55,643 bases of DNA, filler included, from Jimgerdemannia flammicorona (GCA_003990765.1; 3 parts of 3 records of this genome joined end to end with filler, not necessarily neighbours in it), one strand, 5' to 3'. Counted from the whole stretch's first letter, positions 3,459 through 55,643 are shown. The notes: generated by a model not told the origin, from the letters alone. Numbers and translations are program-made.

Positions 3459-3523
3459 TCTTGTCTTGTCCTTTTCTTTGTAAGGGGAGGGGGATGAGGG
3501 TTGCGGGGTATTCTTGCCTTGGG

Positions 3524-3531
3524 TATTTATA
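3524..3531 (-). promoter_or_regulatory. Putative internal TATA box for ORF3
   Basis: TATAAATACCC ~66 nt upstream of the ORF3 ATG; the same TATAAATACCC motif is in the family A (~2271-2283, minus) and family B (48118) LTRs. Confidence 0.55.
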
Positions 3532-9285: not shown

Positions 9286-10163
9286 TGTGTTGACTATTGA
9301 TGGTGGGCCTGTTGGGGTAGATTCTCCTGAAGATTGTTCTGCTTGGTGGGGTTGTAGTGCTATATGACTTGGAGTTACTTGATTTCTAGATATTAAGTCA
9401 AAGAGTCCTGTAAGAGAGGGTAAACCAAACCTCTGTATAGGTGGCTGGGTTGGTTCAGGGGTCTGATCTTCTTGACCTGTGGTTCCTTGGTAAATTCCTA
9501 GGCCTGCTGTTCCTCATTGGCTATTGTCAGACTGGTAACCTGTAGAGTCTTCGTCTGACTCCCTTCCCTGATGAGATAGTGCATCCTCATACTGACTAGG
9601 TCTTTCAAAGAGGATATCAGTCTCTGGCTGAGTAGATGGGCCTGCTCCTTGTTCAGCAGTAGGGGATGGTTGGCCTGCTTGCTCGTTCTCATACCTAGTT
9701 ATGGCAGAGGTATAGTATACAACTAGCCTGTAGTAGAGGGAGGTCTTGGTAGGGGTATGATGATATCTGTCAGAGGCAATCCACTTGGCAGCTACTTCTT
9801 TTGCAGCAGGGGGTGTGATATAATCTAGAACATCCTGGGTGGCTGCAGCAGTAGATTCTGAGGTCCTAGTGGTTCCAATGTATCCTCAGAGGAGTTCGTC
9901 AAACCTATGGTGGCTAACTATATTTCTAAGTCCTGGGTGGTATATCCTAAAGGCCTGGTATAGATTCTTGTAAGCCTGGTCAATTACAAGCTAGCAGGTC
10001 TCTGTGTCTGTGGTTTCTTGGTACCACCTGGTCCTAATGGCAAGGGCTTCTCTGGCTCTGGTTTGAGAATCCACAGTTAATTCTGGGGTATACTCCTGTC
10101 CAAGGTTGGTCTTGTTTCAACTTCAGGAGTGTATTCTTTGGTACCTTCTTGGCTGGTAATCCA

Positions 10164-10172
10164 CTGCTACCA
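10164..10172 (-). other. Primer-binding site (initiator tRNA-Met type) of A2
   Basis: TGGTAGCAG 3 nt (ACT) after the 5' LTR; complementary to a ...CUGCUACCA tRNA 3' end. Confidence 0.8.
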
Positions 10173-10175
10173 AGT

Positions 10176-10989
10176 TGTAATAACTCTCACTTCTACCCCT
10201 CTCTTATCCTTTGGATAATTAGAGAAGTGGACTATTACTTAGGGACTTAGTACACAATGTGTACCAAGAAGCCTTCAGTTTGAGGAAGTGCTCGCTTATA
10301 AGTAGTTGTAGCGGCAGTGCCTTCTGTTTCAAAGGTCTTTCTCTGGCTTGCCTTCTGTTTCAAAGGTCTTTCTCTTGTGCCCTATTTTGAGGGTCTTGTT
10401 CTTTGCTGTGCACAGACTGAATTTACCTTAGAATTCAGGTTCAATGGGTTTACTTAAGTCTTTGGGGATTTATATACTGGTCTCAGTTCTGGCAGAAGTT
10501 AGCTAGGCTTCTGGAGTTTAGTCAGAAACACTAGAGTCACTTAGATGTCATTACTAAGACTCAGGGGAATGTGTGTGTGTTGGGGGACTTGATTCTTGTA
10601 TCAAGGACCGAACTAAAACTGCTTTATTTCAGATGGAAACTGGGGGGTATTTATACAAGTTGGTCCGCGATTTCTGACTAAGTATGAGTGACTAATTTGG
10701 TAACTATCATGAGGTTTGTGATTGCGATCTTTGTCAGGTGGTTTTTGGTAAAGAATATCTTTGTGATCAGGACCTCAATTACTAGGCAATGATCAGCAGC
10801 TGTGGTAACTGTTGCTGTGGTGCCAGTTGTCAGGGATAAGCTAAATATCGTTTTCCACGTCGTTCGTTTGCATCGTTCATTCGTTCGTCATATGCCATAC
10901 TTGATCGTATGATGACATCATTGCTGGGTCACGTGATCATTCATGATCACTCGTCGTGTCCCATCTGTTCACTCATTCATTCTATTACA
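10176..10989 (-). repeat. 5' LTR of A2
   Basis: Direct repeat of 1803-2617, followed on the minus strand by the PBS. Confidence 0.96.
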
Positions 10990-13565
10990 TCAATACACAT
11001 TCACAGAGAACCATCCTTTTTCTTGACAAATAGAATGGGGGCTCCAAATGGAGAGTGGCTGGGTTCAATGTATCCTTGGGCCAGTAGTTTGGTCAATTCA
11101 TCTTTGAGGGTCTTGAGTTCAGGTTGGGCCAGTTGATAGATACTCTTGTATGGGGGTTCAGATCCTGGAATAAGATCAATTCTATGTTGGATTTGGCACT
11201 TGGGTGGAAGTCTTTGGGGATCTTGGAATACATCTTGAAATTCTTTGAACAGTTCTTGAGCTTCTGTTGGAATTGGGCTGCTTGTAGCTTCAGTGACTTC
11301 TTGTACTATACAGATTAAATAAGTGTTTCCCTTTTTTTGAGAGAGTCTCTTCATTTGAATGGCAGAGATGATTTCGATTCCTTGGTGATTGGTACCTTCC
11401 TGGGGTATCAGAGTGATCTTTCTGCCTTCATGGGTCAGGTTAACCTCATTGGTTCTCCAGTTGATATCTGGGTTGTACTGGGTCAACCAGGCTTTTCCTA
11501 GGATAATGTCTTGTCCTGGGAGATCTACAATACTGAAGTCTAACTTCTCTTGATATTTGCCAATCTTGAGCAAAAGATCTTCACAGATCTTGGTCAATGG
11601 TGCAGTTTTTCCATCATCAAAGGTAACATTTCTTTTCTCAGTGGCAGGTCTGCTTCAGGCTCCAATCCTCTTAGCAGTCTTGGTGCTGATATAGTTTCCT
11701 GTAGCACTACTATCAAGCAAGACATTGACATTTTGTCTGTGGACTTGGCCTGTGAACTTGATGCAACTGTCCTCCTTCTTGATGGTATTGAGCTCTTCAT
11801 CTTCATTATTATCCCAATTGCTGTCAGTCTTCTTGAAGTCAATTTCTCTCCATCCTTCACAAGGAGGGTTGTCTTGTTTGAGTTCTTCAGTCTGTTGGGC
11901 TTGGCACTTCTCAGATTGAATTTTGAAAACTTTGGAGAGGCATGCATGGCATTCACCAACATGTTCCATGCAGTACATTCAGATGGAATGAGGGCATCAT
12001 CCACATAGTACATAACCATCTGCAATTCTCTTGTACCAGTTTTCATCATCTTCCTTCATGGTAGTGACTTTTTGACTGAGGGGTTTGTTGGTAGATCCAA
12101 ACCCTTTCTTGCCACAGTCTGTCTGGGAGAGTTCGGGAACTTCTTCAATGGTGAGATCTTGATGGATTTCTTCAATGATTGCTTGGGCAATCCTTTGGCC
12201 TGCTTTGACTTCAAATGATGTGTCTCCAAAATTTCACAAGATGACATGGATTTCACCAGTAAATCCTTGATCAACTACTCCTCCTCCTAGCCCAATGTTG
12301 AACTCTTTGGCTAGGCTGCTTCGCTCAGCAAGGTAGATGTATGTACCTCTGGGAGCTTGCATTGCAATTCCTGTTCGCACTGTAGCATTGGTACTTGGTG
12401 GAATGGTGAGATCTTGGCTACTGAAGAGGTCATATCCAGCATCAGTTGGGTGGGCCTTAGTGGGGATGGTAGCCTTGTACCATATCTTCTGTACTTTGAT
12501 GATATTCTCGGAATTCTTCTTTCCTGGACCTTCTCCAATAACAGTAATGTTCTGGTTACTGGGTTCATCTGATCTGTTTCTCTTCTCAGGGCATCTGACT
12601 GAGATGTGTTCTGCCTTCTTGCAGATGAAGTACAATCCCTTTTCACAGAGCTGTCTCTTTTCATCCTCAGTAGGAGGTCTGGGTCCTCTGGGGTTTTGCT
12701 GGTTCCTTTGATCATATCTTTGATCATATCTTTGGTCATTCCTTTGATCATTTTTCCTGGTAGGATTTCTCCTATCTTGGTTATCCTTCTTGTGTTCTTG
12801 ATTTCGTGGAGCTTATGCAGCAAAGATTTTGTGGGCTCTTCTTTGTACATGGGCAAAGCACCATGAGTAGTGGGGACATCCTTGGAGAAGACCTTATTCC
12901 TTGATCTTCTGGGTGAGCCAGTCTGGTAGGGCTGCAAACAGATGGTTGGCTCTGGTACCATTGATGGCCAAATTGTTCTCCTGGTAGGTAAGTCCAACAG
13001 TTTTGAGATAGGCATCCATTCTAGTGGCAAAGGTCTCTAGATCTTCTTTGCCATTCTTATGGAACTTCATTTGGGACAGTTTGTTTCATGTTTCTTGTAT
13101 ATAGGCCACATTTTGGAATTTGGTCAGTACCAAGGCCTTGAGTCCTGGGCCAGCTTCGTAGTCATCCCAACCTGGTCTATTGTTGGTAGGTGCTTGTCCA
13201 ATAACTTGGGGGTGGGCTTCCCAGGTTACTGGGTGTTATTCCAAGGTTCACCAGAATTTGGCTGCTGTTCTAGTAAAGAATGTGGCTACTGTTTCTACTT
13301 ATGCTACTGATGTGGCAAATAGTTGTTGAAGGGTACTGTTCTGGATGTTGGTGAGCATTTCTATAGGTACTCGGTTGTCATTTCATTGGTTTTCTCGGTA
13401 GCCTGTATCAACTGCATTGATGAAGTTTTCGATGTCACTGTTTTTTCCACTGAATGTTGGGATTCACAGGGTCTTGGTTGGTTTGTTCTGTTCAGCAATC
13501 TGTCCTACTATCCCTGCTAGTACTGTTAGCTGGGTAGTCAGTGCTGCAATGTTGACATCTACCAT
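10990..13565 (-). pseudogene. gag-pol: A1 gag-dUTPase-protease-RT start
   Basis: Degenerate CCHC knuckle (YFICKKAEHISVRC) in frame with AGYDL...ERSSLA...GGGVVDQGFTGEI; LLDSSATG protease; [14 protein letters not shown] start. Confidence 0.95.
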
Positions 13566-14444
13566 TGTGTTGACTATTGGTGGTGGGCCTGTTGGGGTAG
13601 ATTCTCCTGAAGATTGTTCTGCTTGGTGGGGTTGTGATGCTGTATGACTTGGAGTTACTTGATTTCCAGATATTAAGTCAAAGAGTCCTGTGAGAGAGGG
13701 TAAACCAAATCTCTGTATAGGTGGTTGGGTTGGTTCAGGGGTCTGATCTTCTTGACCTATAGTTCCTTGGTAAATTCCTAGTCCTGCTGTTCCTCATTGG
13801 CTATCATCAGACTGGTAACCTATAGAGTCTTTGTCTGACTCCCTTCCCTGATGAGATATTGTGTCCTTGTACTGACTAGATCCTTCAAAGAGGATATCAG
13901 TCTCTGGCTGAGTAGATGAGCCTGCTTCTTGTTCAGCAGTAGGGGATGGGTAGCCTGCTTGCTTGTTCTCATACCTGGTTATGGCAGAGGTATAGTATAC
14001 AACTAGCCTGTAATAGAGGGAGGTCTTGGTTGGGGTATGATGATATCTGTCAGAGGCAATCCACTCGGCAGCTGCTTCTCTTGCAGCAGGGGGTGTGATA
14101 TAATCTAGAAAATCCTGGATAGCTGCAGCAGTAGATTCTGGGGTCCTAGTGGTTCCAATGTGTCCTCGGAGGAGTTTATAGAACCTACAGCAGCTGACAA
14201 TATTCCTAAGTCCTGGGTGATATGTCCTAAAGGCCTGGTATAGATCATTGTAAGCCTGGTCAATTACAAGCTAGTGGGTCCTTGGGTTTGTGGTTTCCTG
14301 GTACTACCTGGTCCTAATGGCAAGGGCTTCTCTGGCTCTGGTTTGAGGATCCACAGTTGTTTCTGGGGGTTACTCCTGTCCAAGGTTGGTCTTGTTCTAA
14401 CTTCAGGAGTATGTTCTTTGGTGCCTTCTTGGCTCGGTAATCTG

Positions 14445-14453
14445 CTGCTACCA
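14445..14453 (-). other. PBS of A1
   Basis: TGGTAGCAG 3 nt after the LTR. Confidence 0.8.
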
Positions 14454-14456
14454 AGT

Positions 14457-15243
14457 TGTAATAACTCTCACTTCTACCCCTCTCTTATCCTTTGGATAAT
14501 TAGGGAAGTGGACTATTACTTAGAGACTTAGTACACTATGTGTACCAAGAAGCCTTCAGTTTGAGGAAGCACTCACTTAAAGTAGTTTGTAGCAGCAGTG
14601 CCTTCTGTTTCAAAGATCTTTCTCTAGTGTGCCCTATCTTTCAAGAGTTTTGTTCTTTGCTGTGCACAGACTAAATTCGCCTTGGAATTTAGGTTCAATG
14701 GGTTTACTTAAGTCTTTGGGGATTTATATACTGGTCTCAGTTCCAGCAGAAGTTAGCTAGGCTTCTGGAGTTTAGTCAGAAACACTAGAGTCACTTAGAT
14801 GTCATTACTAAGACTCAGGGGAATGTGTGTGTGTGGAGGGGACTTGATTCTTGTATCAAGGACTGAACTAAAACTGCTTTATTTTGGATGGAAACTGGGG
14901 GGTATTTATACAAGTTGGTCTGTGATTTCTGACTAAGTATGAGTGACTAATTTGGTAACTATAATGAGGTTTGTGATTACGACCTTTGTCAGGTGGTTTT
15001 TGATAAAGAATAACTTTGTGATCAGGACCTCAATTTCTAGGCAATGATCAGCAGCTGTGGTAACTGTTGCTGCAGCGCCGATTGTTGGGGATAAGCTGGA
15101 TATCATTTTCCGTGCCATTTCGCATCATTTGTCACTCACTATTCATATGTTGCACTTGATCGTATGATGACGTCATCACCGCCGGGTCACGTGATCATTC
15201 ATGATCGCTCGTCGCGTCCCATCTGTTCACTCGTTCTATTACA
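14457..15243 (-). repeat. 5' LTR of A1 (787 bp)
   Basis: Homologous to the A2 LTRs; TGTAATA...TATTACA termini. Confidence 0.95.
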
Positions 15244-18200
15244 ATATCTACCCCCCAGCATTTGGCTGTCAGAATCCAGTCAATCCTCATACCTAGTCCA
15301 TTCACCCAGTGTGTGTAGATCTTCTTTTCTCTCCACTATGTTCTACCTATATCTCCTAAGAAGCTAAGGTTCTCCACCTCCTTCCAAGCATCCAGACCCC
15401 CACTCCTCCCACCTGCACTCTTCTCTCTATCAGTTCTATCCAACCAAAGACTCTGCACCATATTAAAGTCACCTCCCAGAACATCTACTCCTTCCTCCAA
15501 GAAAATACCCTTCTCCAAAAGATCCCTAATCAACCCAATCTGCTCACCTCTAGCCATAGGGCAGTAGTAAGAGCCTACTCTCACTGGCTTCCACTCAGAT
15601 TGATGCCATTCTCCCCAGACCAAATGGTCACCCCAGCTCCTGATTCCACCCAAATCTCCTCTACCCCTCCTCACCAGAATTGCCACTTTGTCAATCCAAG
15701 CTGTAGCTCCTCCCCATTCTCTAGTCCACTCTATCTGATTCTCCTCATTCTCACACTATATGTATATCCTGCAGCAGAAAGAGATCAGCCTCCAATCCCT
15801 TAAGCCAAGTAAAAATGTTCTTATACTGCCCAGATCCCCTTAACCCATTCACATTCAGAGAGAAAATGTTAGTTATACTATTCATAATGAATAATATTAA
15901 ATATCAAGCTCATCCTCTACAAATCTGCATTCAACCTCTCCTGTACCAAGTCCAAGATATGTTCAGTAGCCAGTTTCTCCTCTTCAGCCATCTTTGCCTC
16001 CAGCCCAACCAGAAGCTCAGCTATCTCCCCATCCTCTTTATCCTCGAAGTCCTCATGATACTCCAGGCATGCCTCTTGCCAGAGTTGTAAACTATGCTGC
16101 TCTGCCCAATAGTAGGCAGCCCACTCACCAGCAACAACTGCCAGCTCAGCCTTCCTCTCCTCATCAACCTCATATCCCTCCTTCTTCAGGAAAATAGCAA
16201 GTACCTCTGCCTTCAGCACCTCCACCACCCCATCTCTATACAGAATCCATGCCCAATGCTCCTTACTTATTACTCTCAGATCCACATCCCCCAACTCCTC
16301 AGCTGTAAAGTTATCTATCATCTGGCTCATCTACAGCAGGTTTCCCACCTTCTTCCCTCCTGGTATCCCCAGTCTTCCCACATCCAGCATCATGATATCT
16401 GCCCCTACACTAGCAGTTCCTCCTCTGGGACATCCACCAGCTCATCCTCACTAATCACCACCACCTGTTCTCCTTTTGCCATATCAGGAACTCCAAAGTG
16501 TACTTGCTGAATGCTCCACATCAGCTCATTCTCTGCCACCCAACCCCTTGCAGCAAGACCTTGTCTGACTAGAGAGAGAGTATCTTTCAAGACTAGCTCC
16601 CAGACTTTGAATGTACCATCAGCAAAAGGGTCCTTATGCAGCATCTTTCTGGCCCCATCCAGGCCCTCCTCTACATCTTCTCCTCTCTTACTAGCCCAGA
16701 CACTCACCTCTATGTCCCCAGACTTCTCTGTGCTCCCAGCATTCTTCTTCGCCCCTTCTTCTATGCTCACCAGCAGCTTCCTCTGCTTCTTGTACCCTTG
16801 AGCTCTCCCCCACTACCTCTTGTCAGTGCAAATATATTTCCCATCTACAATCTCCAAATGTGTCAACTCTACATACAACTTCCAGGCCTTTGCCCTCTAC
16901 TCTACTGCCCCACTCATCTCCTCTAGAGCCTCCAACAAGTTCTCCTCCTCCTCTTCACTCTCTTTCACTCTTGACACCTTACAGATAAAAGCCCCCCACA
17001 TTATCACCAAAGGCCAGTCACTCATCTTCTCTGTGGCCTCTCTCCCAGCCAGTTTAATTCTGACATCCACATCTCCTATCCTGAAAGTGGTCCCCTCCTA
17101 CATCTGGAAACTAATATTGACCACATCACTATACTCTATCATCACCTCCTCCACCCTTCTCCTAGTCTCAACCTTTGTCACTATAGGTACCCCCTTTACC
17201 AGTAACTGAACCACTCTGGGGTCCCATCTCAAGCACTACACCATAGGGACCACTACCTTATCAATAGCTACTCTAGATTTCAATGCTTTCTCCAGCAGGT
17301 CTGCCTCCTCAAATCCCACTTCAACTCTCTTCAGTTCCTTCAGGAACTTCACCAAGGCAGCTCCAGCCACCTGTTCTGAGATAATCCCCAGAACCATCCT
17401 CACTTTCACAGCTAAGCCCCAGAAGCACAAGATTGCTACAAACTCTGAGATTGACTTCTTGAGTAACAGTGGCACCACTACCCCCATCATACCATTGGCC
17501 AGGTCCCCCTTCCTCTTTGGGCCCATCTGTCCAGCCATATCATCAATAGTTATATCTGGATTTTTTTCCAAATTCCCAGTCTCGCCACTATCAGCAGTCC
17601 CCCCCCCTACTCTCATCTACTGCTCCACTAGCCCTTCCCTCTACCAGCTGAGGTCCAGCACCTCCCACTTCTCCTTCCCTCTGCTTTCTCTTCCCCTCCA
17701 TCTGTCCACTATGAGATCCAATAGGCCATCCACTATTCTTCAATGTATTGGCAAAGCTCCTCTCTTGCTGCCCTCCTACCCCTCCCCCAGTGCTACTACT
17801 ACTGCCTGAACTGCCCTGCCCACTCAGACCACCAAACAACCCCATCACTAATCTATACCCATGTCCAACATATTGCCAGTTGAAGGCTCCAGGTCCACCT
17901 GACCTAGTATGTATATTAGCTTGCTTGTTGGTTGCCATTGTCTTAGTACCTTTCTCTAATAAATGCTTGAAAGTATGTTGTAAAAGTGTGTATAACATGA
18001 GTGGTAACTGCTCTGCTCTTCCTCCTCCTCACTCCCCTTCACTCTCATCACCTTGCTTAAGAAAGCCCCCCAAACCATCACCAAAGGTCAGTTATTAGCC
18101 TTCTCTGTAGCCTCCTTCCCCATCAGTTAAATCCTAATATCAACATCCCTAGTCCTGAACAAGATCTCCTCTCAGACCCGGAATCCAACATCAACTACCT

Positions 18201-18483: not shown

Positions 18484-18583
18484 NNNNNNNNNNNNNNNNN
18501 NNNNNNNNNNNNNNNNNNNNNNNNNNNTTAATTAATTAANNNNNNNNNNNNNNNNNNNNNNNNNNNNNNNNNNNNNNNNNNNN
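18484..18583. other. Assembly gap with TTAATTAATTAA linker
   Basis: 44 N + TTAATTAATTAA + 44 N. Confidence 0.98.
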
Positions 18584-37064: not shown

Positions 37065-37164
37065 NNNNNNNNNNNNNNNNNNNNNNNNNNNNNNNNNNNN
37101 NNNNNNNNTTAATTAATTAANNNNNNNNNNNNNNNNNNNNNNNNNNNNNNNNNNNNNNNNNNNN
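37065..37164. other. Assembly gap with TTAATTAATTAA linker
   Basis: Same structure as 18484-18583. Confidence 0.98.
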
Positions 37165-37180
37165 AAAAAAAAAAAAAAAA

Positions 37181-38671
37181 GAGAGTTACTTTTTTAGGGT
37201 AGCCATTACATAGTTCTGGAAGAGTTTTCTGGAAGTTCTGGATATTCTGGAAGACTATTTTCTTATGGTCAAGATCAATTTCATATGAAGTACATCCTCT
37301 ATGCTTATTGATTTCAAGATCAGGTTGATGTCTCAACCAAAGTCCTTTTTCAGACTAGTTCTGAATGTTCAGGATTCTCTATATTTCAGGAAGTTCAAGA
37401 AACTAAGACTAGCTTAGTTGAATCAGCATATTGCTGCAGACAATATCCAATTAGGAAATTTTATGATGGGGTTAAGAGTGGGATCTAATGGAGAGCAGAT
37501 TTACTTAAGAGTGGTTTGTGGATTATTAAATAGGTTTATTCACTATTCATGATATTGCTATACTAGGAGTTGGTTGTATGAAGGAATATTATAGGGAAGT
37601 GCTCAGGAGTTATGTTCAAATTGTTCAGATCTTTTCAAGTCTGAGATTCTGAGGTCTGGGTGAGGGGGTATTTATACTAGTGAGGGGCTATCTGGACTAT
37701 GCTAAATATGGATATAGCACTAAGTACTTTGCTGAGTTGGAATGCAGTCACATAGTACAAGTGTGATCTGATATGTCAAGAGATCAACTGACTGCTGAGT
37801 CAGTTCACAGTCATGTCATACAAGACTAATCTAACTATACTATAACTGCTAGGCTATTTATAGGTTTAGACACTGTCTGGAAAGTCTTTGATGATATTAC
37901 CATTGATGACATCATTGCTGGCAAAGTCTGAGCAGTTTTCTAACTTCTGATGTCATTAGTTTCAAAAGTATTGTCACTTCTATCTCTTATAAGATTAAGG
38001 CTGTCCTTGGTGGTGGTAGTTGTACTAGGATAATAGGTCTTGGTTCTTTTTTTTTTTGGTCTGCTGGTGCATTTGTGAGGACTGGCCATTCTCATCTAGG
38101 GCAAGGGCTCCCAATGTCATAGCTGGGGGTTCAAACCTCTTGGAAATGATATTTTCTATAATCCAAGGCAATTTCTAGTAGTAATATCTATCACATGGAT
38201 GGCTTGAGATTGGTTTTGACATTGTTGGCTTTCTTGAGTTCAGATAAAGCATCCATCACTCTCCAACAGAAGTGACACAGATAGAGTAAATAGAGTTGTT
38301 CAAATGTGTTTTGCTTCTGCTAAGTAATGAGGTCTTGTATAGTTACAGTGTATCTTGGTCTTGAGTTGATAAGTGTAGTTCGTGAACCTTTTGGTAGATG
38401 AGATAGAGTTCTTCTTGTCTCAATTTGAGTTTGGTACTTTCAGTTTTCTTTTGTAATTATACAGTACACTAAACTAGTTATAGTGGTTCAGAGTCAATCT
38501 TATGGTTATAGTACTTCTTCTAGTATTCTTGTATCTTGGTGGTGGGTTCTCGTGCTTGCTGGCATATTTTGTATAACCAGATGATCTCTTGTTTGTAGTC
38601 TTGTATGTGGTTTCCAAATTAGTTCTGAGGATGCCATGTGATTTTGGTGGCTTGGAGGTTGTGTGCTTATA
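37181..38671 (-). repeat. LTR of a family-B-related element (B'), ~1.5 kb, with different U3 content
   Basis: Starts TATAAGCACACAACCTCCAAGCCACCAAAAT (cf. 46570); 37181-~37915 is the reverse complement of ~47890-48600; the middle instead matches family A 3690-3970. Confidence 0.8.
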
Positions 38672-42472: not shown

Positions 42473-43743
42473 ATTGAGACTATTTCTGGTTCAGACTCTC
42501 TCTACTGTAGAATCTATCAACTAGCCCAACCTAAGCTGAAGATCCTTAAAGAATAACTAGCAGAATTAACAAGTAAAGACCTCTTCTATTTATCAAAATC
42601 ACTATATAGTGTACCAATCCTCTTTATTTACAAGAAGAATAAAAGTCTCTATATATGTATTAATTACTGAATACTTAATAAGATCTCAGTCAAGAACTAA
42701 TATATACTCTCAAGAATCAATAAACTACTTGACCAAGTATATAAGGCCAAGATCTTCTCACTTATCAATCTTACTTTTAGATATTATCAAATTTATATTA
42801 AGAAAGAAGACATTCCCAAAATAGTCTTTCAAATAAGATTTAGACACTATAAATTCTATATAATATTATTTGACCTTATAAATATATTAACAATATTCTA
42901 AATACTAATGAATGACATCTTTTGAAAATACCTCAGAGTGTTTATTCTGGTCTATTTGGATGATATTATGATATATAGTATAAGTAATATAATTTACTAA
43001 TAATATCTACAAATGGTTTTTGATATACTCTATAAATATATACAAGCTCTCAGCAAAAAAAAAAGAAATACCACTTCTTCAAGAAGAAAATCAAATATCT
43101 AGAATATATTATCTTAGAAAATAGTATTACTGTTGACCCAGACCTAAGCAATCTGCAATTGACTCATTCTAAAGACTTTTAAATCCCTATGAGAATTCAA
43201 TAAACTAGCAGAATATTATAGGAGATTTATTTAAGGATTCTCTGCAATTACTGTCCTACTCATAAGCCTTATTAAGAAGAGAGTCAATATTAAAAAAGAA
43301 TAGACAGAAGAATGCATCACAGTCATGAACACTCTTATGAGAATACTGACTAATATATATATTAATCCTAATTAGTCTTAACTCAACAGAACCCTTCATA
43401 ATTACTACTGATGCTTCAAATATTACTATTAGAGCTATCCTGACTTAATATGAATACCCTGTTACCTACTTGTCTCAGAAACTCAATAAATATAAAAGAA
43501 ACTATACCATATAAGATAAGAAACTTCTTACTATCATCTAATCTCTACAAGTATGAAGATATTTTCTCCTCAGTAAAATGTTCACCTTATGGACTAACTA
43601 TTAAGTTCTCTGATATATCCAGACATAGCTAATTCTTACAGAAAAACAGGCCTATAGATGCAAATCTTTATACCCTTTGATATTAAAATTAAGTATATTA
43701 CTAAAACTAAGAATAAAGTAGTTGATATACTTTCCTAGAGTAT

Positions 43744-44691
43744 TATAAGAGGATTACTTTATTAGAGTACTATTACATAGTTCTGGAAGGGTTTTCTAAA
43801 AGTTCTGGAAGACTATTTTATTTAAGATCAAGATCAATTTTGTATAGAGTATGTTCTCTATACTTATTGATTTCAAGATTAGATTGATATCTCAACCAAA
43901 GTCCCTTTCCAGACTTGTTCTGGATGTTTAGGATTTTCCATATTTCAGAAAGTTCAAAAACTAAGACCAGCTTAATTGAATTGATATATTGCTGCAAACA
44001 ATACCTAATTAGGAAATTTTAAGATTTAGTTAGAAGTAAGACCTAATGAGATATAGATTTACTTAAGAGTAGTTTATAAGTTATTAAATAGGTTTATTTA
44101 CTATTCATGATATTGCTATACTAGAAATAGTATGTGAAGGAATATTTGTGTAGGAAAGTATTTATCTGGATTCTTGTCTATATTTCTATCTGAGTTTCTG
44201 AGGTCTGGAAGAGTAGATATTTATACTAATAGGAGACTATCTGAGCTATACTAAATATAGGTATAGTACTTAGTACTTTGATAAGTTAAAATACAGTCAC
44301 ATAGTACAAGTATGAACTGATATATCAAGAGATCATTTAACTAATAAGTCAGTATGCAGTTATATAATATAAGACTAATCTAACTATATTAATAACTACT
44401 AATCTATCTATAGATTTAGATACTGTCTGGATATTCTTCAATAAGATCACTATTAATGATATTATCTCTAATGAAGTAGTTATCTAAAAAGGGTGGTTTT
44501 TGAATTATATCTCTCTGTTTATTTATATAGTAGTAGGTTAGAACTATATCACTATCTCATAGGATAGTATCATCTATCTCATATACTGAGTAGGGTATCA
44601 GTGGGTCAAGAAAGAGTATATTATCTTTACTTTTATTGGATTTACTATCAGCATACCTTTGATAGATTACAGTACTATATATTGTAGAGTT

Positions 44692-44729
<38 letters not shown>

Positions 44730-46299
44730 GATAAACTCAGTCAACAGACTGTACCAAAAACAATTTATTTGGACATACAATCATAGATACACTGCACCTA
44801 TACATAGAGCATCAATTAACTATTATCTTTTTTCATTATAATGACCCAGTCGATAGTAACTTTAAGGTCCTTCAGAGTGATGTTCTTATTGCTGAGATCT
44901 ATTTCCTTAAGATTACCACTGACTTTCTTCTTCTTCAGAATGAAATTTTTATCTTTTGGATTATGCTCCATCTTAAGTATATATAACAGTTTACCAATAT
45001 CAGTCATCTTATCTATCTTGATCAAGTGGGTTGAGCTGTCCAACCATTAAACCATAAAGATGATAAATTTGACTAGCTTATTCTCTATACTACAATGTTT
45101 GTCATTCATTTGTCTGCTGAACTTGATGAAATAATTGACCTTGGGTGTCTTGTTCTCAGTTACATCAGATATACTAGTTAGTTTCAGGTATAAATCATTG
45201 CAGAGTTATAGTATACTAGTAGCTGTAGTTTATTTTATTTATACTTAGGAGGTAGGGTTGTTAGTTCAATCTTGAGAGTTATTTGGAGATACAGGTTATG
45301 TTCTCTAATCTCTTCATTATAGTTGAAGTAATTAGGTATAAATGTAGGTTAGTATTCATACTAGTGGTTATTATCTCAATAGATCTCATAGATGGTTATA
45401 AACTGTTATAAGTTTATTAGTAAAGTTGGTGGAGTAATCAGGGTTGGCAGAGATCTTTAACTGGAGGTCATATCAGTATCAGAGAGATTATTGTCTTCTG
45501 CTTCATCATTGTTAAACTGAATTATATCATAGATATCCTTTATGATATATCCAACTTGGAATATTTGCAGGATGTAGTTATTAGAATATAGGAAGGATTT
45601 GTCTGTAGTTTGGACATACTTGATATACTTGTAATTGAGTTCTTATATTATATCATTGATTTGGCCATAGGACAGAGTGGCAACCATTTTAGTAGTAGTA
45701 ACTTAGAGGCAGAGAATAAAGGTACTGTACTTATAAAAGAGTTCTCAGTATTTGTAGATAATAAGTTTCTGGTATTGAGACATTTTGATAATATCTATAT
45801 TGTAGTAGTGGCTAACCATATCTTCTAGGAGATAGCTGATCTGGTAGTAGCTTGAGATTTGTCTAATTTGGTGGTCTTTACTAAGTATGTTCAGGATATT
45901 CTATTGGGCTTCTACAAAATAGAGAGATACTAGGCTATAGATATTTATAAGGGGTAGGAGAGGTGTGGCTAAGTTGATAATAATATTCCAAATATTAGCA
46001 TAGATACAGTTGTAGACTTCAGTGGTCATATTTGGTATATATTCAAGAGTTGTAGTTATTTATTTGATTTGTTGTAGTTCTCTATTTTGATATGTCTGTA
46101 TATTCAGTATATATATATGCTTTTAGTCCTGATTAGTAAGGTTCCATTTTTGTAAATATTGTATTCTGTAACTTTAAGTTAACTCAGCTTTGTGATCTGT
46201 GACTTCAGTTTGACTTAGCTTCATAATCTTATATGTAATTTCTGAATTTATTCTAAGAGTGATATGTGATTTTAGTAGCTTAGAGGTTGTATGCTTACA
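43744..46299 (-). repeat. Old solo LTR of family B, carrying a retroposed insertion
   Basis: Reverse complement of 46570-48606 with heavy C>T/G>A change; flanks AGTAT/AGTGC are consistent with a decayed 5-bp TSD; host pol continues across it. Confidence 0.9.
44692..45196 (-). pseudogene. Polyadenylated retrocopy (5'-truncated) encoding a possible ubiquitin-like domain
   Basis: Poly(A) 44693-44725, AATAAA ~40 nt upstream, stop at 44816, 11-bp TSD ATTGTAGAGTT (44681-91) / ATTGCAGAGTT (45197-207). Confidence 0.75.
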
Positions 46300-46683
46300 A
46301 GTGCTCAGAAAGATAACTTTATTGTAATTTGTAATATTATTACTAGTCTATTTGAAAAAGTCAAGAAAGAGTATACCAAAGATAACAATATATAAGAAAT
46401 TACTAAAAAAAAATCCTTAAAGAAGGCAGCAATATCATGAAAAAGATCTACAAAAATATATCTATTCAAAATAGATATATGTATCTTAATAATATAAGAA
46501 TCTAGATCTCTGATATCTCTATCTACATATAAATTCTATAAGAACTATATAATATACCTATAGCTAGATTGTAAGCACACAACCTCCAAGCCACCAAAAT
46601 TACACATCACTCTCTGAACAAAGCCACTGAAATCACATGCGACCTTCGAACAAATCTGGAAATCACCTGCTTGATCATGAAGC

Positions 46684-46721
46684 TGAGTCAAACCGAAGTC
46701 ACAGTACACAAAGCTGAGTCA
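46684..46721 (+). promoter_or_regulatory. Two TGAGTCA (Gcn4/AP-1-type) sites in a 31-bp tandem repeat in U3
   Basis: TGAGTCA at 46684 and 46715, retained in the 3' LTR; TGACTCA also at 47992. Confidence 0.4.
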
Positions 46722-46830
46722 ATACGAAGTCACGGAACACAAGATCTACATAAACGGAACCTTATCAATCAGGACCAAATGCATATATACTGAGCACCGA
46801 GACACGTCAAATCAGAGAACCAAAACAAAC

Positions 46831-47928
46831 ATGACCACTGAGATCTACAACTACATCTGCGCTGATATTTGGAATGCCATTGTCAACCGAGCCACACCCC
46901 CTCTGCCCCTCATGAATATCCATAGCCTGGTACCCCTCTACTTCATGGAAGCCCGATGGAATGCCCTGAACATGCTTAGCGAGGCCCACCAAATCAGACA
47001 AATCTCAAGCTACTACCAGATCAGCCGCCTCTTGGAAGACATGGTTGAACACCACCATGATACAGATATTACCCAGATGTCTCAACACCAGAAGCTCATT
47101 GCCCGCAAACATCGAGAACTCTTCTATGAGTACAACACCTTTATTCCCTGCCTCCGAGTCACTACCAGCGAAATGGTTGCTACTCTGTCCTATGGCCAAA
47201 TTGATGACATGATACAAGAACTCAACCACAAGTACCTCGAATACATCCAGACCACAGACAGAACCTTCCCGCACCCTGATGACCATATCCTGCAAATGCC
47301 TCAAGTCGGATACACCATGAAGGACGTCTACGATATAATCCACTTCGATGAAGATGAAGCAGAAGACAATGATCCCTCCGACGCAGACATGACCTCTAGC
47401 CAAGGATCTCTGCCAACTCTGATCACTCCACCAATCTTGCCGATGAACTTACAACAGTTCATAACTACATACGAGACTTATTGGGACAATGACCACTGGC
47501 ACGAATACCAACCTGTGTTCACCCCCGATTACTTCAATTATAATGAAGAGACCAGAGAACACAACCTATACCTGCAGACAACCCTCGAGATCGAACCAAC
47601 CACTCCACCACTCAAGTACAAGCAACATGAACCACAGCCACCAGCATACTATAACCCCGCAACTCATAGTGCTGTAACCTATAGAAGGTACGCAGACAGC
47701 GAATCCGATGAAAGTGAAGACAGTACATCCATCCTTCACCCACCAACACCTTATCCAGTATACGAAACAGACGATGCTATCCTGTGGGACGGAGATGAAG
47801 TCCCAATGTATTACTACCTCAGCCAACAAGGAGAAGTAATCTGCGAACTATTATTCCTAGACAACTACTTCATCAGAGATGATGCAATCAATGGTGATGT
47901 CATCGAGGACTACCCAGATAGTGCCTAA
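46831..47928 (+). CDS. LTR(U3)-encoded accessory protein, 365 aa, unknown function
   Basis: Intact ATG-to-TAA ORF inside the LTR; helical-looking N-half, acidic/Pro/Tyr-rich C-half; copies in the 3' LTR (ATG 55415) and the solo LTR. Confidence 0.8.
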   Translation: MTTEIYNYICADIWNAIVNRATPPLPLMNIHSLVPLYFMEARWNALNMLSEAHQIRQISSYYQISRLLEDMVEHHHDTDITQMSQHQKLIARKHRELFYEYNTFIPCLRVTTSEMVATLSYGQIDDMIQELNHKYLEYIQTTDRTFPHPDDHILQMPQVGYTMKDVYDIIHFDEDEAEDNDPSDADMTSSQGSLPTLITPPILPMNLQQFITTYETYWDNDHWHEYQPVFTPDYFNYNEETREHNLYLQTTLEIEPTTPPLKYKQHEPQPPAYYNPATHSAVTYRRYADSESDESEDSTSILHPPTPYPVYETDDAILWDGDEVPMYYYLSQQGEVICELLFLDNYFIRDDAINGDVIEDYPDSA

Positions 47929-48117
47929 ACCTATAAATAGTCTAGCAGTCATAGTATAGTTAGATTAGCCTTGTATGATGTGACTGTGAACTGACTCAGC
48001 AGTCAGACGATCTCTTGATATGTCAGATCACACTTGTACTACGTGACTGCATTCCAACTCAGCAAGGCACTTAGTGCTACATCCATATCTAGTATAGTCC
48101 AGATAGCCCCTCACTAG

Positions 48118-48125
48118 TATAAATA
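48118..48125 (+). promoter_or_regulatory. LTR TATA box
   Basis: TATAAATACCCCC, the same motif as in family A LTRs, ~480 nt before the LTR end. Confidence 0.65.
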
Positions 48126-48609
48126 CCCCCTCCCCCAGACCTCAGAATCTCAGACTTAAACAATCCGAACACAACTCCTGAGCACTTCCCCACAATACAC
48201 CTTCACACAAATACTCCTAGTATAGCAATATCATGAATAGCAAATAAACCTATTCCATAACCCACAAACCACTCTTAAGTAAATCCGCTCTCTATTAGGT
48301 CCTACTCCTAACCCCCTCACGAAATTTCCTAATTGGGTATTGTCTGCAGCGATATGCCAATTCAACTAAGCTGGTCTTAGTTTCTTGAACTTCCTGAAAT
48401 ACGGAAAATCCTGAACATCCAGAACTAGTCCAAAAAAGGACTTTGGTTGAGACGTCAACCTAATCGTGAAATCAATAAGCGTAGAGGATGTACTCCATAC
48501 GAAATTGATCTTGACCATAAGAAAATAGTCTTCCAGAATATCCAGAATATCCAGAAAACCTTTCCAGAACTACGTAACGGTTACCCTAAAAAGCAACCCT
48601 CTTACAACT

Positions 48610-48618
48610 TGGTAGCAG
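48610..48618 (+). other. PBS (initiator tRNA-Met type)
   Basis: ACT + TGGTAGCAG, identical arrangement to family A. Confidence 0.8.
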
Positions 48619-49568
48619 TAGTTTACAATCCAATTCTACTTCAAGATGCTTCCTCACCCTGCTACAAACCCCTCTGAGAATTCCTACAAGTTGGTATAAA
48701 GCCCAACCTCTGAACTGGAATTTATCCTGAACTATCTGACAATCTGGAGAGAATTGAACCTGACATACAAGGACAATTTGACCTCCACACCTGCAACAAG
48801 TGGGATAAACTTCATTCAAAGAAAGAAATACTCCAGTTAAATCAGCAAATAGGTGAAACCCTATTCACCGAACTTCTTGTACTACACCCAGCAAGTCAAG
48901 ATGAAGAAGGTCTTATTGAAGCCTTCTTTACTCTTCTCAACAAGAGTTTTGTCAGCTCTACAAATCCGAGCGACCTAGGACAACCAGCAGCAGTCTTTCT
49001 AGCCTTAGTTCCTCACGAAGCCCAAGCCTCTGTAGCCAAGTGGCTCAACTCTACCGACTTTCACCGCACCAGGACCAAGACCGCATTATACTACTGATTC
49101 CAGAACAGCAAGGCCTGCCATATTCTTAAGGAAGAAGCAAGAGAAACCCTTCATCAACTACCTGACCCCAAACCTGAAGCAGGCCCTGCTACAGCCCTAC
49201 CTGAATCTGAAACCAATACCGAACCTGAACTTGACTTTGAATTAAGTCTGTCTGAAATCAGATATACAACTGATTCTGTCTACTTTGATGCCGAGCAAAC
49301 CCAATTACATGGGGACCAAACCGAAGAAGAGGAGGAGTATCTTACTGAATTTGATCCCGGATACACCACCGAAGGAGACGCACCTCCATCAGGACAGAAT
49401 ACATCTACACAGCAACAAACAGCTATCTATCAAGCCCTCACTCCAGATCCACAACTACTACTCCAGCAGCTTATACAGACCCAAAGAACTCCATCACACT
49501 CTGCACCAGTACCTCAAGTAGTACCAGTAACACCACTACCAGCAGTCCAACTGCCTCCAGTAAACAAC

Positions 49569-52500
49569 ATGGCGAACCAACAGATTCTAGACCTCACAGC
49601 CCAAGTAGCTATAATGGCAGCAACCATTACTGCCTTAGCTGAACAGACCCGACCTACCAAAAATCTGAGCCTACCTACCTTTAATGGTACTGCACAAGAA
49701 GTCCAAAGCTTCATTAGTGTAGTTGACACCAACTTTGAAGCCAATCAATGGACCAATGAGCGAGTTGCTGACTGCGTTCTGATAAACAATCAAGACCACA
49801 CCCTGGAACAACTCTTTGCTACAACTACAGCCTATGTCTGCCGAGTTGTTACATTCTTCCAAGGACCCGCCGAAGAATGGTGGCGAACCCTTCCTGAAAA
49901 ACCCCTCACATGGGATACCCGACCTGCAGTAGTTGCTCAGAATGCAGCAAACAATACCCCAGGATATGGAGCCCATCCTGCAGCCCCTGGACTCAAACAA
50001 CTCATGATTGCTCAATATTGCAGTGAGACCATGATTGCCGAATCCTGAGTAAAACTCTGCAACCTCAAATTCGATGTACATGGCAAAGAAGAATTTGAAA
50101 CCTTCTGTACAAAACTCGAGTCACTCTTGAATACTGTTGGCCTAGGATACATTGCCAATGACAAAGCACGAAATGGTACAAGAGCAGACCATTTATTTGA
50201 TGCCCTGCCTGAATGGCTTACTAGAAAAATCCGAGAACAAGGCTGCCCAGTTGGTTGTGATCACCAACAATGGTGCCTGGCAAGAATCAAGACCATGGTC
50301 AAGTGAATTCTAACAGCTGGACCAATTCTGCCTCGAAGACAATTCAACAACAAGGAAAAGACTTGGACCAAGAAAGAAGAACCCAAGCATAAAGCATCTT
50401 GAGCTCCCTCTACATCCATCTCTTGGACACCCAGAAATCATGAACCCACCCAGCCAAGTACCTTCAAGAAACTTACTGAAGGCGAAAGGAATGAACTTCA
50501 AAGAAGCAGAGCATGCTTCTATTGCCAAAAGACAGGACATATGGCCAGTGCCTGCCCAAACCGAAAACCTCGAACAGCAACATGAGCAACTGTTACAGCT
50601 CTGCACCACCTCAACAACCTGACCACCAGAACACTAGACTTTGTCAAGTTAAGACAAACTGCTAAGGCCCCAACCAAAGGAAGTCAAAAAGCAGCCGGAT
50701 ATGACCTGTATGCAGCCGAAGAAGCTACAGTTTCCAACTGAGAAGTCAAACAAGTCTATACAGGAATCAGTATCCAAATCCCTAAAGGACATGTTGGAAG
50801 AATATGCTGTCACAGTAGCCTAGCATTAAAAAGACTCTCAGTAGAAGGAGGAGTCATTGATGAGGATTACACAGGCGAAATCATTGTCCTCATCCGAAAC
50901 CACAGTTGGATACCCTTCAAGATCCCTATTGGCTTCTGCATCGCCCAGATCCTATTCAAAAAAATCGAGTCAACCCTGACAGTCAAGGAAGTCCCTGAAC
51001 TACTACCCACCATCTGAGGATCCAAAGGATTTGGCTCATCAAACAAAGTCCCAGCCCAACCTACCATAAGTAAAGAAGAACAATTCTACAAGAAGATCGA
51101 AGATGGATATGTACCAAGTGGCTGATGCCCTCATGGTATTGGAATGTACTCTTCCCAAATGATTGATGATTGCTTCTCTTGTGTCAACAAACTGGCTCAA
51201 AGAAGAACCAACAGAAGAAAGGCTCCTACAACTGAAATTACCACCATTGGATCAGACAAACTGCTCACCCTTAAGGCTTTTGTCAACAGAGCACCTGTCA
51301 AGATTATAATAGACAGTGGTGCCTCAGGCAACTTCATCAATGAGGAAATAGCCAACAGACTCAAGGTCTTTACCTCTCCAGTACAGCAAACTCAAGCAGT
51401 TGCTACAGCTGATGGAACCTCACATGTTATTAGCAAAGAAGTCTGCAATCTACCCTTCCGAATTGGCGACTACCGAGTACATGTTACCCTCCAAATCGTA
51501 CCACTTCCTGACAATGAAATTATCCTTGGGACTCCATGGTTAAAACAAGAGAACCCCATGATCGATTGGGTAAACCATTCTCTAACCATCAAGAAAGGAC
51601 GCCACAACTTCAAACTACAAGGTGAAAAGGACCCACTCAACTCTAGTGACCCTGGACCGAAGATCACCCACATCAACAAGCTACAACTCAAGAAATTGGC
51701 CAAGAAATGCCCTCTCTTCGCCATCTCCATCCGACCATCCAAAGGAGAACCCGAGAACTCTGAAGAAGATTTTTCCAAAGTTGACAGCCATGTCAGACCA
51801 CTACTCCAGAAATTCTGAGACATATTCCCAAAGAAACTCCCGAAAGGCCTACCTCCCAAATGAGCAGTAGACCATGCTATCAAGACTATTCTAGATGCCA
51901 AACCAGCTTTCAAGTCAATCTACCACATGTCTCTGAGAGAAATTGATGCACTCAAGAAGGAAATCGATGAACTCCTAGAACAAGGATTCATTAGACCTAG
52001 TGTATCACCCTACGGTGCACCAGTCCTCTTTGTTGTAAAGAAAGGAGGAGACCTACGAATGTGCATTGACTACCGCAACCTCAATGAACAGACCATCAAG
52101 AACTGTTGCCCACTACCGAGGATTGATGAAATATTTGATAGACTTACCAACCCACAATTCATGAGCTCTTTTGATCTGCGAAATGGTTACTGGCAAATTG
52201 CCATGAAAGAAGAAGACATCTACAAGACAGCTTTCCGAACTCGCTATGGACACTTCGAGTTCCTGGTTATGCCCTTTGGCTTAACTAATGCTCCGGCAAC
52301 CTTCCAGACACTGATGAATACCATTCTGCATCCATATCTGGACAGATTTGTTGTTGTCTACATTGACAACATCCTAGTCTTCAGCAAAACCCTGAAGGAT
52401 CATCTTGAACACCTTGAACTAGTACTACTGAAACTCCAAGAAAACAGACTCTTTGCAAAACTCAGCAAGTGCGAATTTCTTCTGAAAGAAATCCAATTCC

Positions 52501-54701
52501 TTGGACACATTGTCACTCCGAATGGAATCAAAGTGGACCCCAGCAAAATCTCTGCAATCAAAGATTGGCCCAGACCAAAGAAGCTGAAAGACCTCCAGTC
52601 ATTCCTGGGATTAGCAAACTATTACAGGCAATTCATTGCCAACTTTGCCAAAATCACTACTGCCCTTACCCAAATGACCAAGCACAGCAAGAAACAAGAA
52701 CAACCGTGGACTATGAAACAAGAGAAAGACTTCAACAATCTTGTAACATGGGGACCCGAACAAGATACTGCCTTCCAAGCGCTGAAAGATGCCCTGATAA
52801 CCACACCAGTACTCCAAGCAACAAACTCTGCCCTACCATATGAAGTCACTACCGATGCCTCTGACCTAGCTCTTGGAGCAGTGCTCATGCAAGAAGGACA
52901 CCCTGTGGCCTATCACTCCCGCAAGTTCAACGATGCCGAAATCAACTATGCCACTCACGAGAAGGAAATGCTAGCCATTGTAGACACTCTGATCAAATGG
53001 CGACCATATCTAGAAGGAGCACACTTTACTGTATTGACTGACCACAAGTCATTAGTCAACATCAAGACCCAGGCTACCCTTTCTCGAAAGCAAGCCAGAT
53101 GGATGAAAGTTCTCACCAATTTTGACTATGAAATCCAGTACCACCCTGGCAAAGAAAACATTGTTGCCAATGCAATCTCCAGACCACCAATCGAAGAGGT
53201 TATCTAAACCCTGACCTTGGTTACCAATACTATCATGGAACAAATCATCGCAGTATGTGTAGATGATAAAGAAGCTCAAGCACTCCGAGAAATCCTGAAC
53301 AACGATGATGCTGACAAGCATACCCGGTACAATCAATACCAACTCAAGGACAATGCTATCTACTACAAGGACAGACTGTATGTCCCAAACAACCGAGACC
53401 TCCGAAGGACTATCCTATTCGAATGTCATGATGCCCCTACAGCTGGACATTTAGGATTTGATAAATGTTACAAAGTTATCTCCCGAAACTTCTATTGGCC
53501 CCGCATGGCAGATCAGCTCAAAACCTATATCACTTTCTGTGATGCCTGCCAACGAAACAAGTCCTCAACACTAGCAAAACCCAGCTTACTCCACCCTATC
53601 CCAGTACCATCTGCAAATTGGGAACAAATCTCCATGGACTTCATTGTACAACTACCCCGAACCAAGAATGGAAAAGATGCAATTGTTGTCTTTGTGGACT
53701 ATCTTAGCAAACAAGCCCACTTTCTGCCTACCACCACTACTGCAACAGCACCAGACATAGCCACACTCTTATTTGATAACATCTTCCACTATCATGGTCT
53801 TCCCAAGATCATTGTTAGTGACCGAGATCCGAAATTCACCAGCCACTTTTGGAAAGCCCTCCATGCACACCTTGGAACGAAACTTGCACTATCCACAGCC
53901 TTTCACCCTGAAACTGATGGCCAAACCGAAAGAATGAACCGAACTCTGGAACAAATGCTAAGGAACTATGTTTCCTATAGACAAGATGATTGGCATGAAC
54001 ACCTTACCACAGTTGAGTTTGCCTACAACAACAGCAAGCAAGCCTCTCTTGGAATGACTCCATTCTTCGCCAACACTGGACAAAACCCAGACACCTCTTT
54101 GACACTTATCCGAACCACCGAAGAACCCTCCACAGTCGAAGCTGTTGAAGAATTCCTGCTACGAATGCGAAATCTAAGCCAGATTGCAATCGAGAATTTA
54201 TCACGAGCCCAAGAACAACAGTCACAGTATATTAATCAACACCGCCGAGAAGAAACCTTTGATATCAGAGAAAAAGTTCTACTAGACATCAGAGGATACC
54301 GAGTTGACAACCTCAAGCACAGACCATCTACAAAGCTGAACAGTAAGTTCATTGGACCATTTGAAGTCATCGCACAAGTCTCTCCAACCTCCTACAAACT
54401 GGCGCTACCGGACACCATTAAGATTCACCCAGTCTTTATTGTTCAACGTCTCAAGCGATACAATGACAATGATGACAAACTATTTCCAAATCGAACCACC
54501 AAACCATCTGCACCTGTCATCATTAATGACTAAGAAGAATATGAAGTTGAACAAATCCTCAACAAACGTGGAAACAAGAACCATCCCGAGTACCTTGTCA
54601 AATGGAAAGGATACCCAATCCATGATGCAATATGGGAACCCAAGACCAATCTCCAGAATGCTACCGACCTAGTTCAGGAATATGATTCCTTGAACAACTA
54701 G
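49569..54701 (+). pseudogene. gag-pol: Element B gag-dUTPase-pol, with scattered premature stops (mostly TGA)
   Basis: LPTFNG capsid; CFYCQKTGHMASAC (~50514); IIDSGAS PR; RT/RH 51927-53207 (YIDN variant); IN 53217-54533; chromodomain YEVEQIL...YLVKWKGYPIHDAIWEP. Confidence 0.96.
50630..51043 (+). pseudogene. dut: dUTPase domain of element B
   Basis: AAGYDLY, SSLA, GGVIDEDYTGEI, IAQ, GSKGFGSS: all five trimeric dUTPase motif positions, some degenerate. Confidence 0.92.
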
Positions 54702-55112: not shown

Positions 55113-55125
55113 AAGAAGGGGAGAG
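55113..55125 (+). other. Polypurine tract of B
   Basis: AAGAAGGGGAGAG immediately before the 3' LTR. Confidence 0.9.
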
Positions 55126-55126
55126 T

Positions 55127-55643
55127 TGTAAGCGCACAACCTCCAAGCCACCGAAATTATACGTCACCTTCTGAACAAGCCACTGAAATCACATGTGACC
55201 TCCGAACAAATCTGGAAATCACCTGCTTGATCACAAAGCTGAGTCAAACCGAAGTCACAGCGCACAAAGCTGAGTCAATACGAAGTCACGGAACACAAGA
55301 TCTACACAAACGGAACCTTACCAATCAGGACCAAATGCATATATACTGAGCACCGAGATGCGTCAAGTCAGAGAACCAAAACAAACAACAACCACAACTT
55401 CCAAACACACAAACATGACCACTGAGATCTACAACCGCATCCGCGCTGACATTTGGAATGCCATTGTCAACCGAGCTACACCCCCTCTGCCCCTCATGAA
55501 TATCCATAGCCTGGCCCCCCTCTACTTTGTGGAAGCCTGATGGAATGCCCTGAACATGCTTAGCGAGGCCCACCGAATTGGACAAATCTCAAGCTACTAC
55601 CAGATCGGCCGCCTCCTGGAAGACATGGTCGAACACCACCATG
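55127..55643 (+). repeat. 3' LTR of B (partial)
   Basis: Matches 46570 onward; has ~28 bp extra before the ORF ATG and a CGA>TGA stop at 55538-40. Confidence 0.95.

Follow-up and report, generated by a model that had tools for sequence, protein, structure and literature searches.

A probable protein-coding gene in the U3 region of a Ty3/gypsy chromovirus long terminal repeat

Retrotransposon long terminal repeats (LTRs) are regarded as control regions without coding content and are masked during annotation. Can such a repeat nevertheless carry a gene of its own? The question is raised by a stretch of 55,643 nucleotides (filler included; hereafter the window) from Jimgerdemannia flammicorona (GCA_003990765.1), in which an open reading frame (ORF) of 365 codons for an orphan acidic protein runs from ATG to TAA at 46831–47928 (+) within a stop-to-stop frame of 46687–47928. 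The ORF lies inside the 5' LTR of a Ty3/gypsy chromovirus (46570–48606, +, 2037 bp with TG...CA ends, aligned with the 3' LTR), where it is free of stops and takes up 1098 of the 2037 bases (54%).

The limits of this LTR were set by several signals. Similarity between the 5' and 3' LTRs begins at 46570 and 55127, with 88% identity over the 517 nt visible; the 3' LTR (55127–55643, +) is cut by the window end, and its visible part, the first 517 nt, covers 76 ORF codons. At the other side, two further LTR copies end their alignment at 48606 (LTR positions 2034–2038), where the terminus ...CTTACA is followed two bases on by a primer binding site (PBS)-like sequence starting TGGTAGCAG (48610–48621, +), which we take to be a match to the 3' end of the initiator tRNA. 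A tRNA scan of the window gave no tRNA gene. A polypurine tract (PPT; 55113–55125, +) stands directly 5' of the 3' LTR start, and contigs of the public runs X1 and X2 have the same tract ahead of the LTR.

Within the LTR, a TATAAATA box at 48119–48126 (+), the likely promoter of the genomic RNA at the end of U3, lies 190 nt past the ORF stop, and an AATAAA poly(A) signal at 48243–48248 (+), marking the end of R, follows about 120 nt past the box. Both are kept in all three full LTR copies of the window. Read from the sequence, as is the PBS, U3 would thus extend to about 48150, R to about 48265 and U5 to 48606. Because the TATAAATA box and AATAAA are both downstream of the ORF, the ORF is placed in U3, and it would therefore be duplicated at both ends of each new insertion. 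It was found within three independent LTR copies, namely the 5' LTR, the 3' LTR and an old solo LTR. The first-pass annotation had described an ORF that fills over half of the LTR and lies in U3, that is interrupted by a stop in the 3' LTR and that is still traceable in the old solo LTR. All of this holds: the 3' LTR has a CGA to TGA change at codon 42 relative to the 5' LTR, and the whole ORF aligns to the solo LTR with the same start and stop positions and 11 internal stops. A second TATA-like element, CTATAAATAG (47931–47940), occurs immediately past the ORF stop and is kept in a variant LTR described below. An Rfam search of 46300–49300 returned no match.

The element that carries the LTR is a dead dUTPase-bearing Ty3/gypsy chromovirus (Metaviridae). 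Its coding region (48714–54698, +) holds gag with a CCHC knuckle, dUTPase, protease, RT, RNase H, integrase and a chromodomain in a single frame of 1995 codons, with 12 in-frame stops (10 TGA and two TAA) and zero frameshifts. Pfam matches fall in one frame in the order RVP_2 (2.8e-12), RVT_1 (9.1e-35), RT_RNaseH (3.3e-34), Integrase_H2C2 (3e-20) and rve (1.5e-08), and a Chromo match (2.1e-17, 54534–54698) lies C-terminal to the integrase. The element has direct LTRs with TG...CA ends, a PBS following the first of them and a PPT preceding the second, and its 3' end lies beyond the window. Its dUTPase (Pfam PF00692; 50742–51014, +, 4.9e-19) sits downstream of the CCHC knuckle of gag and upstream of the protease, and a dUTPase is also found in a second gypsy family of the window (12234–12812, -, 4.2e-17). 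That family occupies 1–15256 (-) as a tandem array in which 6711–10989 and 10990–15243 are 90.5% alike; with LTR copies of about 817–836 nt at 1802–2618, 10175–10990 and 14456–15256, it appears to have the layout LTR-internal-LTR-internal-LTR, as after unequal recombination. dUTPase has been reported in fungal elements of this chromovirus type (PMC2864245).

An open frame of this length is not expected of the LTR by composition. Dinucleotide-preserving shuffles of the LTR never gave an ATG-initiated ORF of 365 aa (0 of 2000; mean 81, largest 214). Base composition by codon position resembles that of the RT and integrase, with G at 0.27/0.10/0.14 compared with 0.28/0.11/0.15.

Variation among related copies was examined by aligning contigs of three public runs (X1, X2 and X19) to the LTR at a likeness of at least 80%; the aligned pieces numbered 4271 from a soil metagenome and 470 from 'organism A', both apparently DNA, and 461 from a run guessed to be RNA. 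The variants were drawn from metagenome contigs and contigs of other organisms rather than from a tree of copies, and the 40 best-supported of 418 variant places were listed. Among these 40, 26 fall inside the ORF, 17 of them at third codon positions, and 18 of the 26 are synonymous, where 8.6 would be expected for changes of the same types (P about 1e-4). Read in the other frames, the same 26 listed variants give only 3–6 synonymous changes, apart from the antisense frame that shares wobble positions, which gives 15 and has no long ORF. At six of the 26 listed sites the window differs from at least 90% of the depth in X1 and X2, and these six (four non-synonymous, two synonymous) are probably decay private to the window copy; the other 20, which are polymorphic among copies, comprise 16 synonymous and four non-synonymous changes. 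No net frameshift occurs in the ORF among the listed variants, and four indel places (five rows) fall in the non-coding part of the LTR. An antisense ORF of 147 aa (47005–47448) was also considered and rejected, only six of the 26 listed variants being silent in its frame.

The old solo LTR (43743–46281, -; flanking 5-bp repeat GCACT/ATACT), in which the ORF is decayed, offers a deeper comparison. It aligns to the ORF over its full length with a 516-nt poly(A)-tailed insertion as the sole indel, and the two differ at 277 of 1098 bases (25%), 205 of these differences being C>T or G>A, mostly at CpG and CpA. The change types that are not due to this decay are biased towards silent sites: between the 5' LTR and the solo LTR, 12 of 33 transversions are synonymous (5.2 expected, P=0.003), as are 25 of 39 T>C and A>G changes (12.5 expected, P=1e-5). 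As a control, the decay-type C>T and G>A changes of the solo copy are near neutral, with 86 of 205 synonymous and 76.4 expected (P=0.08). The insertion itself (about 44679–45197, -, inside the decayed ORF) carries a long tail of A residues, is flanked by a short repeat, and looks like a SINE or other retroposed sequence.

Homologous proteins were sought at E <= 0.001 among 5.8 billion proteins, by near, shorter and longer length classes, and among 1.84 billion representatives. Hits passed for one of 369, one of 25 and none of 947 candidates in the near, shorter and longer classes, respectively, and three passed among the 1.84 billion representatives. The family members in public protein sets are two fragments only: P0001 (247 aa) is open, has 67% identity to residues 115–364 with two whole-codon gaps and ends at the matching place, and P0002 (128 aa) is open and 90% identical to residues 1–128. 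Public protein sets hold open frames only, and there is therefore a bias toward open copies. P0003 (E 8.5e-6) is a repeat protein aligned through a single repeated 38-residue helical stretch at 34% identity, and in its own Pfam hits no stretch passes the threshold; we judged it uninformative. At the nucleotide level, scans of metagenome, genome and viral contig collections recovered no related locus, the best word share of the LTR stretch in sequencing runs was 0.27 (a soil metagenome), and run X21, raw WGS reads with the species label of X2, contributed one read aligned to the LTR.

Taken together, the length of the frame, its codon-position composition, the silent-change biases and the open homologues argue for purifying selection on the ORF protein during replication of the family, as far as sequence comparison can tell, and we consider the ORF likely to be a genuine protein-coding gene of the retrotransposon family, borne in the U3 of its LTR.

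This selection does not extend to the copy in the window, which is an open but decaying relic within a dead element. In gag-pol, 10 of 45 CGA-type codons have been converted to TGA and two of 83 CAA-type codons to TAA; at these rates, an ORF with four CGA and 13 CAA codons has a chance of roughly 0.25–0.37 of remaining open, so that the open frame of the window copy is unremarkable, and selection on this copy after insertion was rejected on the same figure. At seven of the first 76 ORF codons, the 5' LTR departs from a reading that the 3' LTR shares with P0002. The 5' LTR copy thus holds private replacements in at least seven codons, counted over the first 76 codons compared, and about 9% of the residues in that stretch are already lost. 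The description of the gene as intact in the first-pass annotation is therefore right for the stop-free frame of the 5' LTR but not for its protein sequence, given these replacements, nor for the element, given the 12 stops in gag-pol. In the small sample available inside the ORF, the 5' and 3' LTRs show 16 differences in 229 nt, nine non-synonymous and seven synonymous.

The decay has a clear signature. The CpG observed/expected ratio is 0.02–0.04 in old solo LTRs and 0.4–0.58 in the element, compared with about 1.0 in host-like ORFs, and since the CpG loss is limited to repeats, it is the repeats that decay via C-to-T change. Over the ORF stretch of the old solo LTR, 70% of cytosines in CpG and 56% in CpA are changed, against 17–28% at CpT and CpC. 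This pattern points to a C-to-T mutation process that would be targeted at repeats. The host-like ORFs elsewhere in the window have a fungal look, and one has a cysteine pattern that may be read as Zn2Cys6-type.

A further LTR of the window shows that the ORF is not a fixed part of this type of repeat. The variant at 37179–38669 (-) matches the ORF-bearing LTR only over the first ~50 nt and the last ~737 nt, and this shared end includes the last ~20 codons of the ORF and its stop. Its middle ~700 nt are unrelated to the ORF-bearing LTR and have no long frame. Because this variant keeps only the start of ~50 nt and the last ~737 nt, the cis functions of the LTR must lie outside the ORF. Within its middle part, 38028–38315 (293 nt) is 78% like a segment (3676–3965) of the second gypsy family that lies past pol and ahead of that family's 3' LTR, which suggests an exchange of U3 between gypsy families, and U3 as a whole appears as a mosaic, exchangeable block. 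Loose contig ends that match the variant were found in runs X2 and X19. The window contains four runs of 44 N in two pairs (18484–18583 and 37065–37164), with a linker of the TTAATTAATTAA type inside each pair, representing scaffold joins; because one N run adjoins the end of the variant, its 3' limit is uncertain. It had been proposed that every solo LTR would deposit a protein-coding gene. This is too broad: LTRs such as the variant have no ORF to leave behind, and the ORF-bearing solo copy has been wrecked by C>T and G>A decay.

Three other explanations of the ORF have to be weighed against a gene in U3, and the variant LTR bears on more than one of them, being itself a point against a gene that belongs to the LTR, as an LTR of the same type without it. 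The ORF could lie in a very long R or leader instead of U3, with the genomic RNA starting at an upstream TATATA and the ORF forming its first cistron. There is such a TATATA, together with two TGAGTCA repeats, just 5' of the ATG, and an R of 2023 bp has been claimed for the plant Retrosat2 by in silico annotation (PMC3485330). We nonetheless find this arrangement improbable, since a canonical TATAAATA followed by AATAAA ~120 nt on stands 3' of the ORF in all LTR copies, and since the variant retains this downstream promoter block while lacking the upstream TATATA region. That the ORF is a host gene or a fragment of one, passively carried and with no role for the element, is also conceivable in that outside sequence does enter U3, as the 293-nt piece of the variant, 78% like another gypsy family, demonstrates. 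Against such a passenger, only P0003 passed E <= 0.001 besides P0001 and P0002 and was uninformative, the protein matches no Pfam family, and the bias towards silent change among copies indicates constraint while the ORF was carried by the element; we give a host origin of this kind even less credence than the long leader. A captured host gene fragment had been named in advance as one outcome that would undo the first reading, and neither the protein searches nor Pfam brought one to light; in the searched protein sets, the ORF protein has no host homologue outside the element family.

It might finally be argued that the open frame has no function, having either arisen by chance on a T-poor strand or survived as a dead relic in which regulatory constraint on the DNA preserves the frame. 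The coding strand is indeed poor in T (0.21), which lowers the frequency of stops, and CpG deamination yields stops only at CGA, of which four remain in the ORF, so that open frames persist under this type of decay. The remaining evidence speaks against such a frame: none of the 2000 shuffles reaches even 215 aa, the silent excess is specific to the ORF frame, and a homologue at 67% identity is open over 247 codons whereas the solo copy, diverged by 25%, has 11 stops. Of the three alternatives we hold a non-functional frame to be the least probable, and we return to the reading of the ORF as a gene of the element in U3.

What the protein might do can be approached from its composition. Pfam assigns it no family at E <= 0.01 and no DNA-binding domain, the best match in a PDB sequence search has an E of 0.35, and the best score in a protein atlas (0.81) is under the level of a lead. 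The protein has 62 D+E against 18 K+R overall, and its C-terminal 200 residues contain 42 D+E, 6 K+R, 28 aromatic residues (Y+W+F) and 20 prolines. In tiles of 40 residues, the C-terminal half has a net charge of -7 to -10 with 5–12 W/F/Y/L, and its aromatic motifs are well conserved between the window ORF and P0001. No transmembrane segment was found, the highest 19-residue Kyte-Doolittle mean being 0.86. The first-pass annotation was thus correct in calling the C-terminal half acidic and the protein not Env-like. In the structure prediction that it had advised, AlphaFold2, run on a three-row alignment, gave a mean pLDDT of 31.5 and a pTM of 0.17, without a confident fold, and its model has helices over residues 3–141 (pLDDT near 30–40) and little order beyond.

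Activation domains typically contain acidic stretches with aromatic and leucine residues scattered among them. Since the C-terminal half has stretches of this kind, we rank first, with low confidence and on the basis of composition, an activator-like or host-factor-binding accessory protein. Such a protein would combine a helical N-terminal region of ~140 residues with an acidic, aromatic-rich C-terminal half, and would act in trans for the element. Transcriptional activation specifically we think unlikely, Pfam having found no DNA-binding domain. The transactivator or silencing suppressor suggested at first pass accordingly has composition in its favour, with no known domain and no confident fold to set beside it.

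The LTR also contains elements from which the ORF may be expressed. A 31-bp tandem repeat in two copies (46680–46742, +), with TGAGTCA in each, is a candidate upstream activating sequence and is kept in the 3' LTR (55240 and 55271); we take TGAGTCA to be an AP-1/Gcn4-type site. A TATATA element (46784–46789, +), a candidate promoter of the ORF, lies 42 nt 5' of the ATG, a spacing that is about 70 nt in copies without the 28-nt deletion that the 5' LTR leader has relative to the 3' LTR. The leader before the ATG is A/C-rich with A at -3. A TGACTCA site (47992–47998, +) occurs 120 nt 5' of the main TATA box, and is noted as a lead only. Over the whole window TGASTCA occurs 11 times against 11.3 expected and shows no enrichment, so that the idea of a separate promoter draws on position.

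We propose that each LTR could be a small transcription unit, in which the two TGAGTCA repeats and TATATA 5' of the ATG would drive an mRNA of ~1.4 kb that terminates at the LTR's own AATAAA, while transcription of the genomic RNA would begin at the TATAAATA box, about 1.3 kb downstream. An own promoter with termination at AATAAA is favoured here because a retrovirus-style intron of 6.5 kb is unlikely in a fungus. Provided that the gene is real, this arrangement seems plausible to us, if somewhat more doubtful than not. Going further, each LTR might be a self-contained gene whose trans-acting product activates LTR transcription or antagonises repeat silencing, a tentative proposal that we regard as rather unlikely in this full form.

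Among public runs recorded as RNA, none contains the ORF stretch. Run X19, which is small, from another organism and labelled as RNA by a guess, has an uneven summed contig depth over the LTR: 0 over the first 235 nt, 5–19 over most of the ORF with 0 over 47512–47814, up to 7631 at 48118–48622, about 7 just past the LTR and 0 deeper in gag. In X1 and X2, all LTR bins over 46603–48622 have depth, which ranges about 4-fold in the former and about 12-fold in the latter. The X19 depth would be compatible with one start close to the ATG and another close to 48150, but given its guessed RNA label and its other source organism we do not count it as evidence of expression; its peak at 48118–48622 could be LTR-initiated RNA or a strong-stop-like product.

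The closest known parallel is sag of mouse mammary tumour virus (MMTV), an ORF of ~320–365 codons in U3, present in both LTRs and at the 3' end of the genomic RNA, with an accessory role. Sag is a type II membrane glycoprotein with a signal-anchor segment. The ORF of the window is likewise located in U3 and likewise doubled in both LTRs. The two have, however, no sequence relation (no Pfam family and a best E of 0.35 against the PDB), and the window protein is strongly acidic and has no hydrophobic segment. They also differ in setting, here a fungal host and a non-infectious Ty3/gypsy chromovirus, in which a long splice like that of sag would be unlikely. In the literature, of which open full texts were covered in part, sag was the only precedent found for a protein gene in an LTR.

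Orphan, fast-evolving additional ORFs are on record for Ty3/gypsy elements, among them plant aORFs, ORF0 of Retrosat2, RIRE3 and RIRE8, ORF1 of Ogre and brtn of Boty from Botrytis (PMC7264820, PMC3485330). The window ORF resembles aORFs and ORF0 in being a lineage-restricted orphan alongside gag-pol. As described there, theirs are internal, placed either ahead of gag or behind pol and outside both LTRs, whereas the window ORF is wholly within 46570–48606, so that solo LTRs retain it, unlike internal aORFs. A variable U3 is known from crapaud, a chromovirus of Podospora, whose LTR subfamilies vary in U3 before the TATA box, share their 3' half and include recombinant LTRs (PMC10787394). The ORF-bearing and ORF-less LTRs of the window show the same pattern of a variable U3, but the variable U3 described there for crapaud is <200 bp and non-coding, and here it is ~1.25 kb and protein-coding. 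In overall structure, with the order gag-CCHC, dUTPase, PR, RT, RNase H, INT and chromodomain, the element resembles the dUTPase-bearing fungal chromoviruses, such as Tmt1 of Tuber and elements of Phanerochaete and Postia. The descriptions consulted for these mention no LTR-borne ORF, and a figure legend lists an 'add. ORF' for an element (PMC2864245). Our literature search, in which subscription journals were partly covered, found no report of an LTR-borne protein ORF among LTR retrotransposons other than retroviruses.

If the proposal is correct, no accessory gene encoded in U3 would have been described before this one in an LTR retrotransposon outside the retroviruses, with two gene copies in each full element and one left by each solo LTR. 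Dating by LTR divergence presumes neutrality, an assumption that fails for LTRs that are coding. A selected protein gene in U3 would mean that fungal retrotransposons evolve accessory genes there, as complex retroviruses do, and solo LTRs could then seed orphan genes genome-wide. In a fungus with strong CpG depletion of its repeats, the ORF is a concrete candidate for a regulator, or a factor countering host defence, that is encoded by a transposable element.
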